A stretch of DNA of 64,000 nucleotides from an uncultured Planctomycetota bacterium. GTDB lineage: Bacteria; Planctomycetota; Planctomycetia; Isosphaerales; Isosphaeraceae. Made by a program: the position numbers and the translations under genes. The first letter of the stretch is position 1. Each line of letters begins with the position of its first letter. Below are positions 49,206 through 64,000 of this stretch, piece after piece. The stretch covers positions 576,001 through 640,000 of the forward strand of contig CAWGMQ010000010.1 of NCBI GenBank assembly GCA_963823665.1, written 5' to 3'. Under the pieces are notes generated by a model. That model saw only the letters and a list, made by a program, of their open reading frames with translations. It made no database searches and was not told the origin of the DNA.

Positions 49206-50331
49206 ATGAATTTCGAACAGTTGCTCAAGTTCGGCGTTGATCAGGGTGCGTCGGCCATTCATCTCCAGGCGGAGTCGTCCCCACAGTTGCGTATCGGGGG
49301 GCTGATGCGCAACGTCGAAGGCTCTCCACTGAAAGCCGATGAGCTGAAGGCGTTCATTACCTCGATCGGCCCGAAGTCCGTCGTCGACGATATCGATCGG
49401 TCACTGGCGTCCGGATCGATCTTCTCGACATCGCTCGCGGCCGGCCGGTTCCGCTGCACCATCTTCAATCAGATCGGCGGGCCAAGCCTCGTGCTGCGGC
49501 TGATTCCCTCGACGATCAAAAGCATCGAGGAGCTGAACCTGCCGCGGGCCGTCCGCGAGATCGCGCTGGCTAGCCGCGGGCTCACCCTCGTCGTCGGCCC
49601 CAATGGAAGCGGCAAGAGCACAACCCTGGCCGCGATGGTCGACGTGATCAACGCGGCCTCCTACCAGAAGATCGTGACAATTGAGAACCCCGTCGAAATC
49701 CTTCACGCGAACAAGAAAGCCATGATGACCCAGATGGAGGTCGGGCGGAACGTCACCTCGTTCGAGCACGGTGTCGGCCTGGCGCTAACGCAGGACGCGG
49801 ACGTGATCGTCGTCGGCGATCTTCGCGAGGAAGCGGTGGCGCGGATGGTACTCGGCGCGGCTGAGGCTGGCCAGAGAGTCCTGGCCGTCATGACCGGCCT
49901 TAACGCCACCCAGGCGATTGCACGGTTCGTCTCGTTGTTCCCGCTCGACCAGAGGGAGACCGCGCTCTCCCAACTGGCCACTGCACTCGGGGGGGTCATC
50001 GCTCAGCAGCTCGCCAAGACGCGCGATGGCAAGTTCCGGCCCGCCGTCGAGGTGTTCCGCGGTGGAGCGGCGGTGTCCCAGTCCATCCTGGATAACCGTC
50101 TCCAGGATCTCAGGCATCAAATCGCGAGCCGCCAGGGCGGGATGCAGTCCCTCGACCAGCACCTGATCGAGTTGAACCGGTCCGGCGTGATCAGTGGCAC
50201 GGAGACGATGCGATTGGCCACCAACCCCGAGGCCGTGGGCACTCGAGCTTCGCGCCGTCCGTCAAGTGAATCCCGCCCCGGCGCCTGCCGACCCGGATCT
50301 TCCTTGGCCCGAAGAGGCTCTCAAAAAATAG
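49206..50331 (+). CDS. PilT/PilU-like ATPase with degenerate motifs, frameshift near 50241
   Basis: Walker A GPNGSGKSTT, IHL and GMQSLDQHL; the shifted frame ends PWPEEALKK*. Confidence 0.85.
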
Positions 50332-50366
50332 TTGGCCGGGTAAGAGTCCCTGACATGATGATCAAC

Positions 50367-51408
50367 ATGATGAAGGCCATACGCAGACTACCACTGATCG
50401 CCGCCGCGCTCGTAAGTGCGGCATTTCTCGCAGCAACAATTGTGCAAGCAGCCGACCCGCTCCCCTCGTGGAACGACCGTCCGGCCAAACAATCCATCAT
50501 CACTTTCGTCGAAAAGGTCACAAAACCCGGCTCGGCCGATTTTGTGCCGGTGCCGGAACGCATCGCCACTTTTGACAACGATGGCACGCTCTGGTGCGAG
50601 CAGCCGCTGCCCGTTCAACTCTTCTTCGCGCTCGACCGCGTGAAGGTGCTTGCGCCGCAGCATCCCGAATGGAAGGACAAGGAACCGTTTGCCTCGCTGC
50701 TTAAGGGTGATTTGAAATCGGCGCTCGTCGGCGGCCGCAGCGCGGCGCTGGAGATTTTGTCGGTCACGCACGCGGGCATGACCACGGTGGAATTCGAGCA
50801 GATCGTCAAGGACTGGATCGCGACCGCGAAGACATCCGAAATACAAGAAGCTCTACACCGAGCTGGTCTATCAGCCGATGCTCGAGCTGCTGGCCTATCT
50901 GCGGGCAAATGGCTTCAAGACCTTCATCGTCTCCGGCGGCGGCATCGAGTTCATGCGCCCGTGGGCCGAGCAGGTTTACGGCATCCCGCCGGAACAGGTC
51001 GTCGGCAGCAGCATCAAGACGAAGTTTGAACTGCGCGACGGCAAACCCGTGCTTGTGCGTCTGCCGGAGCTGAACTTCATCGACGACAAGGCGGGCAAGC
51101 CGCTCGGCATCAACCTGCACATCGGCCGCCGGCCGATCGCCGCGTTCGGCAACTCCGATGGCGACCGCGAGATGCTGGAATACACGCAGGGCGGCAGCGG
51201 CGCGCGGTTCATGCTGCTGGTGCTGCACGATGATGCGGAACGCGAATACGCATATGGCCCGGCTCAGGGATTGCCGGACGTCCAGCTTGGTGCCTTCACG
51301 CCGGCGCTTTACGAGCAAGCGAAGAAAGACGGCTGGACGGTTGTCAGCATGAAGGACGATTGGAAGACCGTCTTCGCGTCCCCCGCAGGCTCCGGGCAGG
51401 GCCATTGA
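50367..51408 (+). CDS. Secreted HAD-superfamily hydrolase, frameshift near 50831
   Basis: Signal peptide; FDNDGTLW, IVSGGG and FGNSDGD motifs. Confidence 0.9.
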
Positions 51409-56856: not shown

Positions 56857-57005
56857 ATTGCGCCGCAAACTCAATTGGACGAGGTGTCGCCGCTAAGCGC
56901 TGAGACGCAAGTTCTGTTTTTTTCGATTCCTTTCGACAGCCATGGCCGGAAATGGCGCGTTCAGGAGTGGAACCGAATGATCTCACCCGGTCGGAGCAAC
57001 ATTCC

Positions 57006-57257
57006 ATGCCACTGGACGCGCAGCGCGTGCAGGCCATTTTCCTGGAGGCTGTAGACTATTGTGACCCCACTGAGCGCGCCTCAATCCTGGATCGCGAATG
57101 CCCGGGCGATTCCGAGCTGCGGCAGCGGGTCGAGGCGCTCCTTGATGCCCACGACCGATTCAACGATTTCGTCAACCAGCCGTCGGCCGGGCCAGACGGC
57201 CGGGCTGTGTCGTCTTACCTGGGGTCCAACTCGTGGCGATCGGGTATGATTGAGTGA
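57006..57257 (+). CDS. Stand-alone homolog of the N-terminal domain of the neighbouring kinase (83 aa)
   Basis: 32/48 aa identical to the 52656 kinase N-terminus; GGAG upstream. Confidence 0.6.
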   Translation: MPLDAQRVQAIFLEAVDYCDPTERASILDRECPGDSELRQRVEALLDAHDRFNDFVNQPSAGPDGRAVSSYLGSNSWRSGMIE

Positions 57258-57408: not shown

Positions 57409-58593
57409 ATGCCATCCGATAGCATCCGTGCGGTCCATCGGCCGGGAAAACGGCCCGCGCTGTCTGATGCCGCACTGCTCTGCTCTCTGGAAGCGATCCG
57501 TGCACGGCTGCCGGAGGGGATGACCGTCGTGACCTCGACCCAGGCTGTGGGCTGGGCAAACATCCACGGCGTGATCACGGCGGGGCGACTGGAAGACTTC
57601 TTCGACTACTGCGCACCATTTCACGTCGTCGCGTTTTGCCTCAAGGGCGCGACGACGGTCGAGTGGAAGCGCGGGACACGCTTCACGCGATTCCAGGCCC
57701 AGCCCGGGGAACTGCTCGTCACAGCGGCGGGCGAGGCCAACTCCATCCGTCAGCACCAGCCGAACGAGGCGTTCAGTTGCAGTCTCAGCCCGGACCGATT
57801 GCAGTCCCTCGCCGAGCAAGAATTGGACCCGCACGGACAGACGATCGAGATCGTGCCCGGCTTTAACCGCGACGCGGAGTTATGGAGACTGGGCGAGCGC
57901 CTGGCCGCACGGCTCCGGTCGCCCATCCCTGGTTCGCGGCTCTTCGCGGATGCTCTTCTCACTCAGATCGCGATCAAGCTCTTGTGGGACTATTCATCTC
58001 TGCCGCGCCGGAGCCATACGCCCGAGGTAGAGAAGCTCGCCGATCCCCGGCTCCGCCGGGTGATCGATTACCTCCACGGCTCATTCGGGGAAGAGATCTC
58101 GCTCGACGGACTCGCGGCGATTGCCGGCCTCAGCCCTAACTATTTCCTCCACGCCTTCAAGCAGACCACAGGGCGAACGCCTCACCGCTACCTGACCGAG
58201 CTGCGGATCGCCAAGGCCTGTGAGCTCCTCAAAAACCCTCACGCGTCGATCGTGGACATCAGCCTGGCCGTCGGCTTCTCGTCGCAGAGCCACCTGACGA
58301 CGGTCTTCGGCCGATTCATGAAGACGACCCCAGCCGCCTATCGCGAAGAAGTCCTCGGACTGCGTCACTCCCCGGATCCAGCGCCCAGGCTCGTCGAAGC
58401 CCCCGATCGGATTCGCCACGATATTCTGAGCGTGAGGCGTGCTGGAGAAAAAGCGAATCCGCCGCCTGAACTTGAATTACCTCCTGATCTTCATTCCGAT
58501 CGCGCTCGGGCTCTACTGGTCCGCGGCGAACCCGCTTCTGGTTTTCGCCACGGCGGCGATGACGATCGCGCCGCTCTCGAAAATCGTCGGTAG
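57409..58593 (+). CDS. AraC family transcriptional regulator
   Basis: RLRRVIDYL...FKQTTGRTPHRYL...VGFSSQSHLTTVF..TPAAYR; the true start and stop are uncertain. Confidence 0.9.
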   Translation: MPSDSIRAVHRPGKRPALSDAALLCSLEAIRARLPEGMTVVTSTQAVGWANIHGVITAGRLEDFFDYCAPFHVVAFCLKGATTVEWKRGTRFTRFQAQPGELLVTAAGEANSIRQHQPNEAFSCSLSPDRLQSLAEQELDPHGQTIEIVPGFNRDAELWRLGERLAARLRSPIPGSRLFADALLTQIAIKLLWDYSSLPRRSHTPEVEKLADPRLRRVIDYLHGSFGEEISLDGLAAIAGLSPNYFLHAFKQTTGRTPHRYLTELRIAKACELLKNPHASIVDISLAVGFSSQSHLTTVFGRFMKTTPAAYREEVLGLRHSPDPAPRLVEAPDRIRHDILSVRRAGEKANPPPELELPPDLHSDRARALLVRGEPASGFRHGGDDDRAALENRR

Positions 58594-58682
58594 TACCACC
58601 GAGACGCTGGGCTTCTACCTCGGGCCCACGCTCGGGGGCTCATCTCGTGATGCTCGCGATCGGGTTTTACTACGCCAGGTAA
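58439..58682 (+). pseudogene. Ca2+/H+ exchanger (Cax/ChaA, CaCA family), internally deleted
   Basis: N-terminus LLIFIPIAL..PLSKIVGSTTETLGFYLGPTLGG stops just before the alpha-1 motif and abuts LVMLAIGFYYAR* in another frame. Confidence 0.65.
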
Positions 58683-58813
58683 CCCTTGATCGTAAGAACA
58701 GAGAGCGTGGTTCAGTGATTTCTTGAAAGACCGGCGGCGCAGACCGGGTACTATCGATCGGTCCGTGAAACCGCAGTGGCCAACCCCGAACTCCTTCGCG
58801 TGGAGGTAGCCAG

Positions 58814-59134
58814 ATGGCAAAGCGCCGCGTCAGTAAAGCTCGAGTCCCAGTCAAATCCTCGACCCGCGCCGTGGATTTCGTAGCGAATGCCGCTCGAGAC
58901 GGCGCCGTCGACGCCCGTACGGCGGCGATCCGGACGTGGGACGCGACCAGCCAATTCGCCTCCAAGTGCGTCTACACCACCTGCTTCACGGCCTCTTACG
59001 GGGTGGTGTTTCCCGTGGTGCTACTGGCCCGCGTGATCCCGCGGAACAACGAAGCCGTTCGGGCCATGATCGATGGGGCGCAGGCTGCGATTCGGAAAGT
59101 CGATGACGTGGCGCCCGCCCTCTCACCGGCCTGA
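58814..59134 (+). CDS. Small hypothetical protein with one hydrophobic segment
   Basis: GGAGGT SD; CVYTTCFTASYGVVFPVVLLARVIP. Confidence 0.75.
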   Translation: MAKRRVSKARVPVKSSTRAVDFVANAARDGAVDARTAAIRTWDATSQFASKCVYTTCFTASYGVVFPVVLLARVIPRNNEAVRAMIDGAQAAIRKVDDVAPALSPA

Positions 59135-59177
59135 GCTGTCTTCGAGAGAACTCTCCCCTTGGAAGGAGATCATCGGC

Positions 59178-60055
59178 ATGGAATCAGTCACGATCACCGA
59201 GACCCGTTCGCCCGGCGGAATCGAACCCGCGAACGGCGGCGGAGCTTTCCCCTCCCTTGACATCGAGTTTGATGAGACCGCGGGATCGCTGCGGATTTAC
59301 GACCCAAGGCTGTTCCAGGCCGGACGACGCGGCTTCTGCAAGCGGCTCCTCACGTTGGCGTCCCGTCAGCCGGGGATCATCAAGGCAGAAGTTGAGCTCG
59401 CGTCGGCTTCATGTCAGATCGAGTTCGGTCCTGGCCCGCAGACCGCTCTCTGCATGGCCGACTCGTTTGTGCGTGTGGTTCAAGAGGCTTCCTCGGGTAC
59501 CTCGCTGCTTGACAGAATCTGGTGGTGGCGCCGCCGCCGGGGATGGTCCGGCATGACGTCCTTTCATCTTCCGGAGGGAGTCTCGCTCTGGGAGACCTTC
59601 GAGGTTGACCCCGCCCGGATCCGGCTCCGCCGTTCAGGGGTCGCCGGTAACCGGGCGCGGCTCTCCCGCCTGGCAGACGCCCTTGCCAGCCTCGAGTGCG
59701 TCGAGGCGTGCCGCGTGTCTGCCTGGTCGGACCGTATCACGATCGGTGTGTGGCGGGATGGTCCCCTCTCGGACCGATTCATGGATACGGTCGAGCAAGC
59801 ACTGGCGTGTCTCGAGGCAGCCGAGCTGTTCTGGCCGGAACGTCCCGCTCTGGCCGCGCCGTTTGTCGAAGCAAGCCGGCAGGGCGCCGTCGCCAAGGCG
59901 ACCTGGGGGAGACATATCATCAACATCGCACTGGCGGGCGGCACCTTTTCAATCACGCTGATGGGTCTGGCCTTGCCGGGATTCCGTCCGTCCCGTTCTC
60001 ACCGGCGACCAGGTATCAGCTAGCGCACTGGGTTAATCGATCCCAACCCCCTTGA
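59178..60055 (+). CDS. Tandem basic-HMA-like (HMA_2) domain protein with truncated YbaN/DUF454-like tail; frameshift near 59979
   Basis: AAGGAG SD; AGSLRIYD and DPARIRLRR domain starts; tail LMGLALPG-IPSVPF. Confidence 0.6.
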
Positions 60056-60066
60056 GACACTCAAGA

Positions 60067-62907
60067 ATGGCCGACTTCGATCTCGCCGTCACTTTCCCGT
60101 CCGAGGGCGTGATCCGCCTTCGTAGCCGATCGTTGTTCGGCGATGCCGACAACCCGGACTATCGACGTTTCCTCGAACGGGTGTTCCAGGTCGAGGAGAT
60201 CTCCGACGTCACGATCACGGGGGGAAGTGCGCCCCAGGCGGAGTTGCGATTCTGCCCGAAGACCTCGACGTTGCGAGACGTCGCGAAGCGGATCGGCACC
60301 GTTCTGAGGCAGGGCCGGGAAAAGGGGGTCGCCACATCAAACGGCGAGGTTCACAGAAGCTCGGGCGGCCGCGCCGGGCGGAAAGGCGGCGCGCACGAGA
60401 ACGGACGTGCCCTCACGAATGGTCGTGCCCTCACGAATGGACACGCTCTGACGAATGGGTATGCGCGACAAACGGCCAGGTTCTGGCGAACGGACAAGCT
60501 CCGGCGAAAAAACGCGGGCAATCGAACGGCCAAGTCCCATTGAACGGCCGCACGAGCAACGGCGTAGCTGTCGCACCCTACTTCGAGCATCACGCCCCAC
60601 TTGAACCGGTGCGCGAAATGACGGTCGCGAGTGCGGCATCGGCCCGAGATAAGAATGGAGTTGTCAAGTATTTTCGCCACGGCTCGGTCGTGACTGGATG
60701 GGAGATCAAGCGCGATCATCCTGGCCGGCTGCGCCTCAGGAATCCGGTTCTCTACCGCAAGTCGGAGCTGTGTCAGGCCATCGAGCGGGAATTGATGGGC
60801 ATCCTCGGGATCGATCAGTACAAGACCAGCTCGCTCACGTGCTCGGTCCAGGTCGACTACGATCCGCGACAGCTCAGCAAGCTCCAGGTGATCGAGATCC
60901 TCGACTCGGTCCTCGCCAGCGCCGAGCACCCAACCGCTCCCGACAAGTCAGACCTTCACCTGCCAGTCTGCACGGCCTCGCTGCCAATCGCGGCGGCGGC
61001 CCAGTTCGCCTTCCCTCCGCTCCTGCCGGTGGCGGCAGCGGTGTTTGCGTACACGTCGATCCCAACGTTCAAGGAGGCTTACAAAGTCTTGTTCAAGGAG
61101 AAGCGGCTGGGGGTGGACGTCCTCGACTCGATCGTGGTCGTTGGCTGCCTGGGGACCATGGCGATCTTCCCCGGAGCCGTGCTCTGCTGGTGCCTCGGCT
61201 TCGGTCGTGCACTGGTCAAGAAGACGCAGGATAACTCCAAGAAGCTGCTGCTGAACGCCTTCGGCAAGCAGCCGCGATACGTGTGGCTCTATCGGGACGG
61301 CGTCGAGGTGCAGGTGACGATGGACCGGCTCCAGAAGGGCGACATCATCGTCGTCAGCACCGGCGAGGTGGTGCCGGTCGACGGGCACGTGGTCGAGGGA
61401 ATGGCGATGATCGACCAGCACGCGCTGACCGGCGAGTCGACACCGGCCGAGAAGGGCATCGGCGACCGGGTCTTTGCCTCGACCGTGATGGTGGCCGGCA
61501 AGGTCTTCGTCTCGGTCGAGACGTCGGGCAGCGACACGGCCTCGGCCAAGATCAGCCAGATCCTCAACGACACGGCCGGTTACAAGCTCGCCTCGCAGCA
61601 CAAGGGCGAGCGGCTGGCTGACAAGGCAGTGATCCCGACCTTGACCATCGGCGCCCTTGGGATGGCCACGATGGGCCCCGCCGGCGCGGTCGCGGTGCTT
61701 GAACAGCGACTTCGGCACCGGAATCCGCATGGCCGCGCCGCTGGCCATGCTCAGCTCGCTGGCCTTGTGTGCGAACAAAGGCATCCTGGTCAAGGACGGA
61801 CGGGCACTGGAGCTGATGAACGAGGTCGACACAGTCCTCTTCGACAAGACCGGCACCTTGACCCGCGAGCGGCCCGAGGTCGGTCGGGTCATCGCCGCCC
61901 GCGGGTTCGAAGCGGACCAGATCCTTGGCTTCGCGGCGGCCGCCGAGCGGAAGTTCCATCATCCGATCGCGCAGGCGATCCTCCACAAGGCCGAAGAGCT
62001 CAATCTGGTCCCGCCGCCGACCGACGAGACCCAGTACAAGGTCGGCTATGGCATCACGGTCCACGCCCTGGGGCACACCATCCGCGTGGGCAGCAGGCGG
62101 TTCATGGAGATGGAGGGGATCGAGCTGCCGCCCGAGGTGAGGGCGGCCTTGGAGGAGGCGCACGGCGAGGGTTACACGATGGTCATGGTCGGCGTGGACG
62201 GCCGCCTGGGCGGGGCGATCGAGCTGCGAGCGTCGGTCCGCCCGGAGGTTCGGGAGATCATCGACGGGCTGCGCAAGCGCGGGATCAAGCACATCGCGAT
62301 CATCTCGGGCGACCACGAGGCCCCGACCAGGAAGCTGGCGGAATCTCTGGGAATGGACCGCTACTTCGCCCAGGTCCTGCCCGCGGACAAGGCCGAGTAC
62401 GTCGAGAAACTCCAGAACGAAGGGTGCAAGGTCTGCTTCGTGGGCGACGGTATCAATGATTCGATTGCGCTCAAGAAGGCCAACGTGTCGATCTCGCTCC
62501 GGGGCGCCTCGACGATCGCAACCGACACGGCCCAGATTGTCTTCCTGGAAGAAGGGCTCGCCAAGCTGTGCGAGCTGCGCGACATCGCCCGCGACCTCGA
62601 TCACAACGTGAAACGGAGCTGGTCGATGATCCTGGCTCCCAACATCGCCTGCATCGCGGGCGTCTTCACATTGGGGTTCGGGATCATGGCGTCGGTCGTC
62701 ACCAACAACGTCGCCGCCCTGGCCGCGCTCGCCAACGGCATGCTCCCGCTCCGCAAGGTCGCCCAGATCGAGGCCGAGCGCCGGCACAGGCTGGAGATGA
62801 GCCAGGAAACTTATGGTATTGAGAGAAACGCTGTACCGGCGCCGCCTGCTGCGGCCGCTCGACGAGGCAACAAGAACCGCCGTCCACGGCGAGTTCGCGC
62901 GTCGTAG
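60067..62907 (+). CDS. Atypical P1B-type ATPase with two N-terminal basic-HMA-like domains; frameshifts near 60463 and 61700
   Basis: EGVIRLRS, HPGRLRLR, TGES, DFGTG in place of CPx, DKTGT, HHP, SGD and GDGIND. Confidence 0.88.
60400..60459 (+). repeat. 18-bp coding tandem repeat, NG(R/H)ALT x3, in the ATPase linker
   Basis: Units start at 60400, 60418 and 60436, with a partial unit at 60454. Confidence 0.8.
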
Positions 62908-62993
62908 ACATCAAATCCCGGTCGCCACCGAATTTCAATGGCACCATGAGAAACCGCAGTTCACGATCCGCTCGAAAAAGGATTCCAGCGCTG

Positions 62994-63513
62994 ATGCCAG
63001 CCAAAAAAGCGAGGGTTGCCGGTCCCGCTCCGCCGATCGATCTGGACCTGAAGTCTGAGCCCCCGCCTCGGCCTGTGAACGATCAGGTGAAGCGGTTCGA
63101 CATCTTCCTGATCGATACGGGCTGGAATACGGCCATCTCGAAGCTGGTGCGCTCCCACTTGCCGCTATTATACCAATTTCAACAGCAAGAGAGCCTCTAC
63201 CTGCTTACACCCGAGCAGTCGGTCGAGATCCTGAAGCGCGCCCGAGTTCATCGGTCGCGACCCGACCGTCCTCGTGTACGATCTCTGCGCTCCGGTCGGC
63301 CGCAAGCATCGCAACTATCACGGCTTTCACCTGAGTCTCGGCCGATTCAAGCACCCGGAACAGGCGCTGTCGCGGCTGCAGGAGTTCCTCCGTTTTCTGA
63401 TCTCGAACCGGTCCTCCGCCGCTCTGGATACCGAGGTTCGCCGCGAACTGAATCGCGAGGGAGCCAAAGGCATGATCAAGATCCTCCGCGAGGCGACCAC
63501 CGAATTGCTCTGA
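62994..63513 (+). CDS. Hypothetical soluble protein, frameshift near 63240
   Basis: KRFDIFLIDTGWN...EILKR joins PEFIGRDPTVLVYDL...REATTELL*. Confidence 0.7.
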
Positions 63514-63549
63514 CGACCCAACGCACGAGTCTTGCTTGAGGAGAAGCCG

Positions 63550-63753
63550 ATGAACGAAGAAATCTCCATTTTGCCGATTTTGGTCGGCGCGCTGGCTGTG
63601 CTCTACTTCGGTTATGAGATCGAGCGCCGCCGTCACCAACTGCGCGAAACGTTCAATGTCTTCGACAAACGGGAAAGCACGATCGCTCAGGGGCTGGAGC
63701 TCATGGTTGAAAGCGGCGAGCTCAGGCCGTATGTCCCAGGCCAGGTGAGCTGA
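63550..63753 (+). CDS. Small single-TM protein (67 aa)
   Basis: GAGGAG SD; ILPILVGALAVLYFGY followed by EIERRRHQLR. Confidence 0.75.
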   Translation: MNEEISILPILVGALAVLYFGYEIERRRHQLRETFNVFDKRESTIAQGLELMVESGELRPYVPGQVS

Positions 63754-63785
63754 GCACGGTCCGTGCCGACGGAGCTGTCCGCCAG

Positions 63786-63899
63786 TTCGCAGGCTTGGGT
63801 CACGAGGAGATCGCGGCGTCCCTCGGCATCACAGTCTACCTCGCTCGCCAGAAGTGGACTTACGCCCGTGCCTGGCTCGGCGATGTCTTGGGCGCCTGA
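63786..63899 (+). pseudogene. 3' remnant (region 4) of an ECF sigma factor (TIGR02999-like), copy 2
   Basis: FAGLGHEEIAASLGITVYLARQKWTYARAWL; no upstream sigma region 2 visible. Confidence 0.75.
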
Positions 63900-64000
63900 T
63901 CCGTTCTTCGGGTAAGATGAACGGGACGACCGTTCACGGCGCAGGGAAGCGCAAATCCGAGCCGGAAGCGAGGTAAAAGTGTCAGGAACCGTTTCCCAGT

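Follow-up and report, generated by a model that had tools for sequence, protein, structure and literature searches.

A conserved gene cluster around an unclassified P1B-type ATPase and its degenerate paralog in a planctomycete

Gene content, conservation and integrity of the cluster

Here we describe a gene cluster in a stretch of 64,000 nucleotides (the window) from an uncultured planctomycete of the Isosphaeraceae, taken from contig CAWGMQ010000010.1 (C10, positions 576001-640000) of the 16.5-Mb, 92% complete assembly GCA_963823665.1. An initial annotation had placed six co-oriented genes here, among them the remnant of a cation/H+ exchanger gene (cax) and a P1B-type ATPase (the pump), and had proposed a metal-storage or biomineralisation operon resembling ferrosome or calcyanin loci. 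Three-frame translation together with family scans confirmed the six co-oriented units on the plus strand, and alignment to relatives disclosed a seventh, truncated gene (Table 1). The cluster is real and conserved, and its assignment to ferrosome or calcyanin loci finds no support; it is an apparently undescribed variant of the kind of cluster that holds an arginine-rich (R-rich) P1B pump, and its copy in the window is eroded and split. The most distinctive feature of the cluster is a conserved pseudo-ATPase, a paralog of the pump that we call the twin and that the initial annotation, confined to the window, did not include.

A scan of genome contigs yielded 105 confirmed relatives of the pump, and the best 80 loci were kept, coming from Planctomycetota, Methylococcaceae, Acidobacteriota and Verrucomicrobiota; some genomes contribute two loci, and related loci are not independent of one another. 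Forty-one of the 80 have at least 5 kb on each side of the pump and are called full loci here. Genes of the window recur among them at the frequencies given in Table 1, together with the hairpin protein F4 (34 of 41), the twin (33), a fusion of two HMA-like domains to DUF454 (14), the single-span membrane protein F19 (12) and EcsC proteins (7). A cax gene lies within about 6 kb of the pump in 16 full loci, on either side and strand, and an intact cax of about 365 amino acids (aa) is near the pump in 21 of the 80 loci; because genomes hold 0-3 cax matches each, fewer than 1% of loci should have a cax this close (12 kb) by chance. The pump itself is patchily distributed, being present in 7 of 31 related genomes, this one included, and in 32 of the 55 Methylococcaceae genomes (the family of genome G031). 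Seven further regions, picked for long contigs from these 32 genomes, all contain the pump and the genes for the 106-aa, soluble, 67-aa, F4 and EcsC proteins, with the twin and cax in six of the seven each. Synteny of the cluster is far above chance, and the small genes co-occur with the pump across four phyla.

Table 1. Features of the cluster and its upstream flank in the window, with recurrence among the 41 full loci
Feature	Coordinates	Strand	Basis or recurrence
AraC-family regulator, possible regulator of the cluster	57409..58380 (end approximate; reading frame continues to 58593)	+	PF12833/PF02311
cax (Ca2+/H+ exchanger) 5' remnant, ~67 codons	58439..58640	+	TIGR00846/TIGR00378 N-terminal match
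106-aa helical protein, one hydrophobic segment (YxxxYGVVFP)	58814..59134	+	36/41 full loci; no Pfam family
Tandem HMA-like domains with broken DUF454/YbaN tail, truncated	59178..60023	+	alignment; PF04304 in relatives
P1B-type ATPase (pump), 947 aa	60067..62907	+	family scans, alignment to relatives, tree
F13 remnant (family ~103 aa), overlaps pump 3' end	62813..62977	+	alignment; family in 23/41 full loci
~173-aa soluble protein, FxIFLIDTGWN motif	62994..63513	+	32/41 full loci; frameshift near 63235
67-aa single-span membrane protein, basic juxtamembrane helix, no GxxxG	63550..63753	+	28/41 full loci

In this genome the module is divided. The pump and the genes for the 106-aa, soluble and 67-aa proteins lie in the window, the twin, F19 and EcsC are encoded on contig C3, and F4 adjoins another copy of the 106-aa gene on contig C6. 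On C3 (1141845-1147200; L096:8870-14200) F19, the pseudo-ATPase and an EcsC protein whose C-terminal part resembles the 106-aa family lie together with an oppositely oriented gene for a DUF697-type GTPase, and this gene set matches those of loci L028 and L040.

The window copy also carries damage of two kinds. The pump frame is interrupted near 60465 and 61697, and both frameshifts are probably assembly errors, since at each site a near-identical contig is one base shorter than the window. The first, of 216 nt, has no base 61697 and differs at a single further letter; the second, of 159 nt, has one gap within 60429-60586 and is otherwise identical (each a single contig of depth below 3). Contigs of all four sequencing runs miss a base at 61697-61701, and locus L001 also lacks the extra base. 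A reading of the pump as a pseudogene was rejected on these grounds. The damage to cax, the YbaN tail and F13, on the other hand, looks real when relatives are aligned: the cax match to TIGR00846 spans residues 9-67, against a model of 372 positions, the YbaN tail is frameshifted, departs from its relatives at conserved sites and has lost about 770 nt relative to locus L002 (deletion at 60030-60054), and F13 is cut at 62977. The frameshift in the soluble protein is seen against both L002 and L023. It could be argued from these remnants, from the deletion, and from the scattering of partners over three contigs with a twin whose own frame is broken, that the locus in this genome is a decaying relic that no longer works. 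We consider this very improbable, given that the catalytic motifs of the pump are all intact, that it sits on a short branch at 85% identity to its nearest tree neighbour, that both of its frameshifts are contradicted by near-identical contigs, and that the short form of F13 is common to L023. Elsewhere in the window (49206-51408) a PilT-like ATPase reads into a frameshifted HAD-type hydrolase, a further sign of assembly frame errors.

AraC homologues flank the cluster in four of the 80 loci (L002, L009, L023 and L031). Remnants of kinase genes lie upstream at 56950-57250, and directly after the cluster (63760-63920) is a fragment resembling the C-terminus of an extracytoplasmic function sigma factor, with similar flanking DNA in L023. 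A promoter and terminator scan gave no signal above shuffled sequence, and no RNA dataset was among the sequencing-run matches listed.

The pump, its paralog and their partners

The initial annotation described four HMA-like domains with basic strands (GSLRIY, PARIRLRR, EGVIRLRS and HPGRLRLR) that lack a CxxC motif. That description held, but the separate open reading frame (ORF; 60067-60543) to which the EGVIRLRS strand had been assigned did not: the domain (60067-60460) is fused to the pump in relatives, so that it is the N-terminus of the pump, which starts at 60067. The HMA_2 (PF19991) cut-off is passed by one domain in four, the second of the pump (31.9 bits against 30); the other three fall below it and were assigned by alignment and modelling. 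The tandem of the YbaN fusion was modelled, from an alignment supplemented with domains of the pump and the twin, as two beta-alpha-beta-beta-alpha domains (predicted local distance difference test, pLDDT, 85) with an extra first strand, which is also found in the model of the twin. VIA comparisons, covering the second domain of the tandem, matched it to HMA domains at Z 6-8.3, a middling score given that a Z near 8 can reflect a common arrangement; the best match was 2ew9 (ATP7B domains 5-6; root-mean-square deviation 3.4 over 70 residues), and Foldseek with the tandem model gave no match at E <= 0.001. The domains are predicted to have HMA-type folds. The definition of a CoBaHMA domain combines basic residues with a beta-0 strand and a His (PMC8890360). 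The position of this His before beta-1 is Arg in the window pump and His in 15 of 45 matched relatives, with 23 of 68 unmatched by the pattern. The YbaN-like character of the third protein was also correctly recognised; its relatives are 275-400 aa long and carry PF04304 at E 7e-19 to 3e-27, and the tail in the window is itself a remnant.

Besides its two Cys-less HMA-like domains and an R-rich N-terminal motif, the pump has intact TGES, DKTGT, HP and GDGIND motifs, and by sequence its set of active P-type ATPase motifs is complete. The membrane motifs are NSDFGTG in segment M4, PN in M5 and TNN in M6, and they are nearly invariant. In an audit of 68 full-length DKTGT-bearing pumps, TGES and the M4 Asp were found in 68/68, as was the motif NSD[FLM]GTG (with N[SC]D as its start), the M5 Asn in 65/68 and the two M6 Asn residues in 62/68 and 61/68; TNN in M6 is shared by the window pump and most relatives. 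The conserved membrane residues are Asp, Asn and Thr, with no Cys or His, and CxxC occurs in 0/68. Its closest relatives, 92-94% identical, come from Planctomycetota/Isosphaeraceae records. The linker between the HMA domains (60414-60560) consists of low-complexity (A/L)TNG(R/H) repeats, and longer NGH repeats occur in L036 and L038.

These features place the pump apart from described classes. In a quick tree of 42 rows the pump and twin form one clade (Shimodaira-Hasegawa-like approximate likelihood ratio test, SH-aLRT, 100) beside cyanobacterial DFGTG and Deinococcus DFASG pumps, and an analysis of 18 of these rows, with most N-terminal domains trimmed away, supported the grouping with the cyanobacterial DFGTG pumps at SH-aLRT 99. 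Approximately unbiased (AU) tests on the same 18 rows rejected a grouping with CopA types (p-AU 3e-44) and with FezB-type pumps (p-AU 0.0067), the latter represented by two DYSCA/HN pumps (L112 and L113) picked by motif and not by FezB; the tree references are plasmid proteins labelled by motif, with FezB, FezH, P1B-5 and P1B-7 not among them. The CPx motifs (CPC, SPC) of the CopA, ZntA, CadA and CoaT classes are absent from M4 and equivalog scores for these classes lie far below cut-off, as are absent the PCP and CSC motifs of P1B-5 and P1B-7, classes judged by motif with no tree reference. Named P1B subclasses carry CPC, SPC, PCP, SCA or CSC (PMC13460109), and FezB carries D[Y/F]SCA and HNxxT (10.1101/2020.01.10.902569). 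Judged by its motifs, the pump belongs to an unclassified DxGTG/PN/NN clade outside the seven named P1B motif classes. The earlier view that this is not an ordinary CopA or ZntA locus is upheld, the pump falling in no sampled efflux subclass, and of the three outcomes that had been named as fatal to the proposal (nesting in an efflux subclass, a non-HMA fold and a lack of co-occurrence) none was found. A large sister group (P0139-P0270) consists of P1B ATPases with active motifs, in which ion-binding residues are conserved in neither M4 nor M6 and whose substrate may be a non-metal.

The twin is a full-length paralog encoded downstream of the pump, and it carries the pair of HMA-like domains seen in the pump. 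In a set of 46 ORFs that lack DKTGT, which includes the frameshifted pump of L015 and L080 of uncertain identity, the M4 Asp is kept in 46/46, the M5 Asn in 44/46 and the M6 Asn in 45/46, while the TGE, KTGT, HP and GDGIND positions are scattered and the Asp at the phosphorylation position is kept in 37. The model of the twin is a full P-type fold (pLDDT 86) with ATP7B, CopA and ZntA as best Foldseek matches. From the loss of motifs we infer that the twin is catalytically inactive. In this genome it lies on C3 (1141845-1144223), directly after the double-GxxxG protein F19 and near EcsC, with a broken frame. In L043 (10187-11935) and L052 the place of the twin is held by a 583-aa HMA_2 protein with no E1-E2 match. 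The plasmid islands of Gloeothece and Nostoc contain DKTGT-less paralogs of their own, in shortened form, and that of Gloeothece branches with the cyanobacterial pumps, which suggests, subject to long-branch effects, that the pairing of a pump with a dead paralog arose more than once. In the literature searched we found no description of the pump clade, of a P1B pseudo-ATPase, or of a full-length P-type paralog that appears to have lost catalysis while retaining, across four phyla, the ion-site residues of its membrane part; such pumps may be listed in the CoBaHMA study of Gaschignard et al. 2024, and the fez supplements treat FezH and related R-rich pumps.

Scans with Pfam and NCBIfam found no family at cut-off for the 106-aa, soluble, 67-aa, F13, F19 or F4 proteins, and a structure atlas returned hypothetical clusters only. 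The small proteins had been said to show no clear GxxxG motif. This is right for the 67-aa protein (hydropathy 1.8; GxxxG in 1/42), but members of the 106-aa family (414 homologues; hydropathy 1.87) carry G-x-x-[DNE]-G in 71/72 relatives, where the window protein has AMIDG, and F19 has a double GxxxG in 18/18. For the soluble protein, atlas structures matched with template modelling scores of 0.44-0.50 by query, a lead towards a thioredoxin-like fold, and F4 gave weak matches to DUF454 and PGPGW (E 0.005-0.006). An unannotated gene of the 106-aa family also lies directly upstream of a DLGTG pump on pMRAD05 of Methylobacterium radiotolerans (L109:8150-8660), and EcsC proteins (L028:2483-3601, L035:13618-14649 and L022:13780-14811) are fused to the C-terminal half of this family (E 6e-17 to 7e-9).

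Substrate and possible function

Oxygen- and nitrogen-only ligands favour Ca, Mn or Mg over Cu or Zn. We propose, with a probability of about 0.38, that the pump exports a hard divalent cation, most likely Ca2+, from the cytosol, working in a membrane assembly with the small helical proteins and the twin. The substrate would follow from the O/N-only membrane residues, conserved in pump and twin, from the linkage to cax, which the sister cyanobacterial DFGTG pumps share, and from accessory gene types like those found beside ccyA in Microcystis; the assembly is suggested by analogy to PacL and the Fez proteins; and the twin might act in it as a non-pumping partner, an ion-sensing, gating or scaffolding subunit. 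Among the candidate ions Ca2+ ranks first, followed by Mn2+ or Fe2+. If calcium is indeed handled, the cluster would be a candidate for how bacteria load intracellular Ca stores.

Several observations weigh against this proposal. Next to the Ca site of SERCA, a single Asp with Asn residues makes a weak one, which would suit Mn2+ or Fe2+ as well. Most of the 150 best profile matches belong to the wider sister group with an unconserved M4, 20 having D[FYL]GTGI, so that the lineage may not depend on the ion site. The twin is dispensable to the cluster, being missing from 8/41 full loci and from one of the seven further regions, and was not found in genome G016 (98% complete); cax is absent from 25/41 full loci; two Acidobacteria loci have Nramp as a neighbour, and the Nostoc island includes a 'manganese efflux pump'. 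Three genes are damaged in the window copy, and because the loci are related the counts overstate independence.

It is conceivable that the pump moves Mn2+ or Fe2+ instead, for export or for ferrosome-like storage, with cax as a bystander in a general cation island. The M4 Asp, the M5 Asn and one M6 Asn are common to DYSCA/HN pumps, DUF454/YbaN genes are often associated with iron, and the Nramp neighbours fit as well; yet the Cys and His ligands of FezB are absent, the grouping with FezB-type pumps is rejected, and scans of 48 recurrent neighbours (unique neighbours being left out) found no Feo, ferritin or Fur, and we hold this alternative to be rather unlikely. The same three results leave the suggested membership among ferrosome loci unsupported.

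A further alternative is a non-metal substrate: the task of the pump and twin would then be to transport or arrange lipids, or to reshape internal membranes, and anionic lipid would be bound by the basic HMA-like domains. The hosts are rich in internal membranes, the wider sister group has free M4 motifs, and CoBaHMA domains have been hypothesised to bind anionic lipids (10.64898/2025.12.07.689555). Set against the strict conservation of Asp and Asn in both pump and twin, the patchy distribution among related genomes and the linkage to cax, this seems quite improbable, and we retain export of a hard divalent cation, most likely Ca2+, as the preferred reading. The cluster is complete in the cultured strains Methylococcus capsulatus Texas, Methylotetracoccus oryzae, Aquisphaera insulae and Tautonia sociabilis, so both the substrate and a possible compartment are directly testable.

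Comparison with known systems

The closest architectural parallel is the fez cluster of ferrosomes, which shares an R-rich N-terminal domain without CxxC, a pump of the six-span type with the M4 Asp, R-rich membrane proteins of small size and, in some cases, a second ATPase gene, FezH (10.1101/2020.01.10.902569). For the small GxxxG proteins of fez clusters the parallel is partial: F19 occurs in 12/41 full loci and, in this genome, on C3, and the 106-aa protein of the window has AMIDG where its family has GxxDG. The present pump differs in having DFGTG and TNN where FezB has D[Y/F]SCA and HNxxT, and falls in a separate clade; the second ATPase here is without catalytic motifs, and cax rather than iron genes lies nearby.

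In Microcystis, ccyA is flanked by cax, DUF5132 and CoBaHMA-DUF454 genes (10.1101/2024.07.07.602159), and the present cluster resembles that neighbourhood in its cax, its HMA_2-DUF454 fusion and its small single-span proteins with an amphipathic tail (PMC8890360; 10.1101/2024.07.07.602159). It is unlike it in being centred on a P1B pump and twin and in having no (GlyZip)3 protein nearby. The absence of a glycine-zipper protein noted for the window was borne out, and membership among calcyanin loci was not: pattern scans, which did not use calcyanin profiles, found no long glycine-zipper protein in the window, the 80 loci or the seven further regions. Gly-zipper_OmpA matches in five Methylococcaceae genomes proved to be short lipoproteins and were rejected as calcyanin candidates; the zippers of a Nostoc HMA2 protein are all short and acidic, and no Fischerella record was among the plasmid cax matches listed.

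From these two parallels one could argue that the cluster builds a lipid-bounded store of calcium, or of calcium with phosphate or carbonate, whose membrane is shaped by the GxxxG and hairpin proteins and which the pump fills. The fez-like architecture (10.1101/2020.01.10.902569), the gene types held in common with the ccyA neighbourhood (10.1101/2024.07.07.602159) and the frequency of the pump in the Methylococcaceae, a family with Ca-carbonate formers (10.64898/2025.12.07.689555), speak for such a compartment. However, no calcyanin-like protein was found near the cluster by pattern scans, full clusters are present in Methylolobus and Methylotetracoccus (L054 and L056), neither of which is on the list of genera with ccyA (10.64898/2025.12.07.689555), the double-GxxxG gene is found in only 12/41 full loci, and effluxosomes share a like architecture yet export; we regard the storage compartment as unlikely.

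In mycobacteria small single-span proteins scaffold R-rich P1B pumps, and the PacL-Ctp effluxosome of Mycobacterium tuberculosis likewise combines a P1B pump, a CxxC-less binding domain and a small single-span scaffold with a Gly motif (PMC13460109). CtpC-type pumps, in contrast, carry CPC and HN (PMC13460109), and the present cluster has many more partners. Profile comparison gave F19 no detectable relation to DUF1490, DUF6110 or DUF5132 (hhalign probability 6.8%), and neither F19 nor the 106-aa family has a Pfam match.

Nearest by descent are the cyanobacterial DFGTG and Deinococcus DFASG pumps, which share a clade with the window pump. These pumps have one HMA domain against two here, at 31-35% identity, and the dead paralogs of the cyanobacterial islands are shortened and branch separately. 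These islands, on plasmids of Gloeothece PCC 7822 and Nostoc flagelliforme, resemble the cluster in gene content, with cax, DUF5132, DUF454, DUF1345 and DKTGT-less paralogs. Those on Nostoc flagelliforme plasmid NZ_CP024792.1 (83-114 kb; L125, L111) and the Gloeothece plasmid (L110) contain two cax genes, DFGTG and DFSHS pumps, and an HMA2 protein that, with its acidic glycine zippers, resembles a reduced calcyanin layout. Set beside ferrosomes and effluxosomes, the cluster might even represent a third branch of their superfamily, a Ca-storing organelle of planctomycetes, methanotrophs and acidobacteria with an eighth P1B subclass and an obligate-like pseudo-ATPase whose membrane ion site is still under selection, a speculation that we hold to be unlikely.

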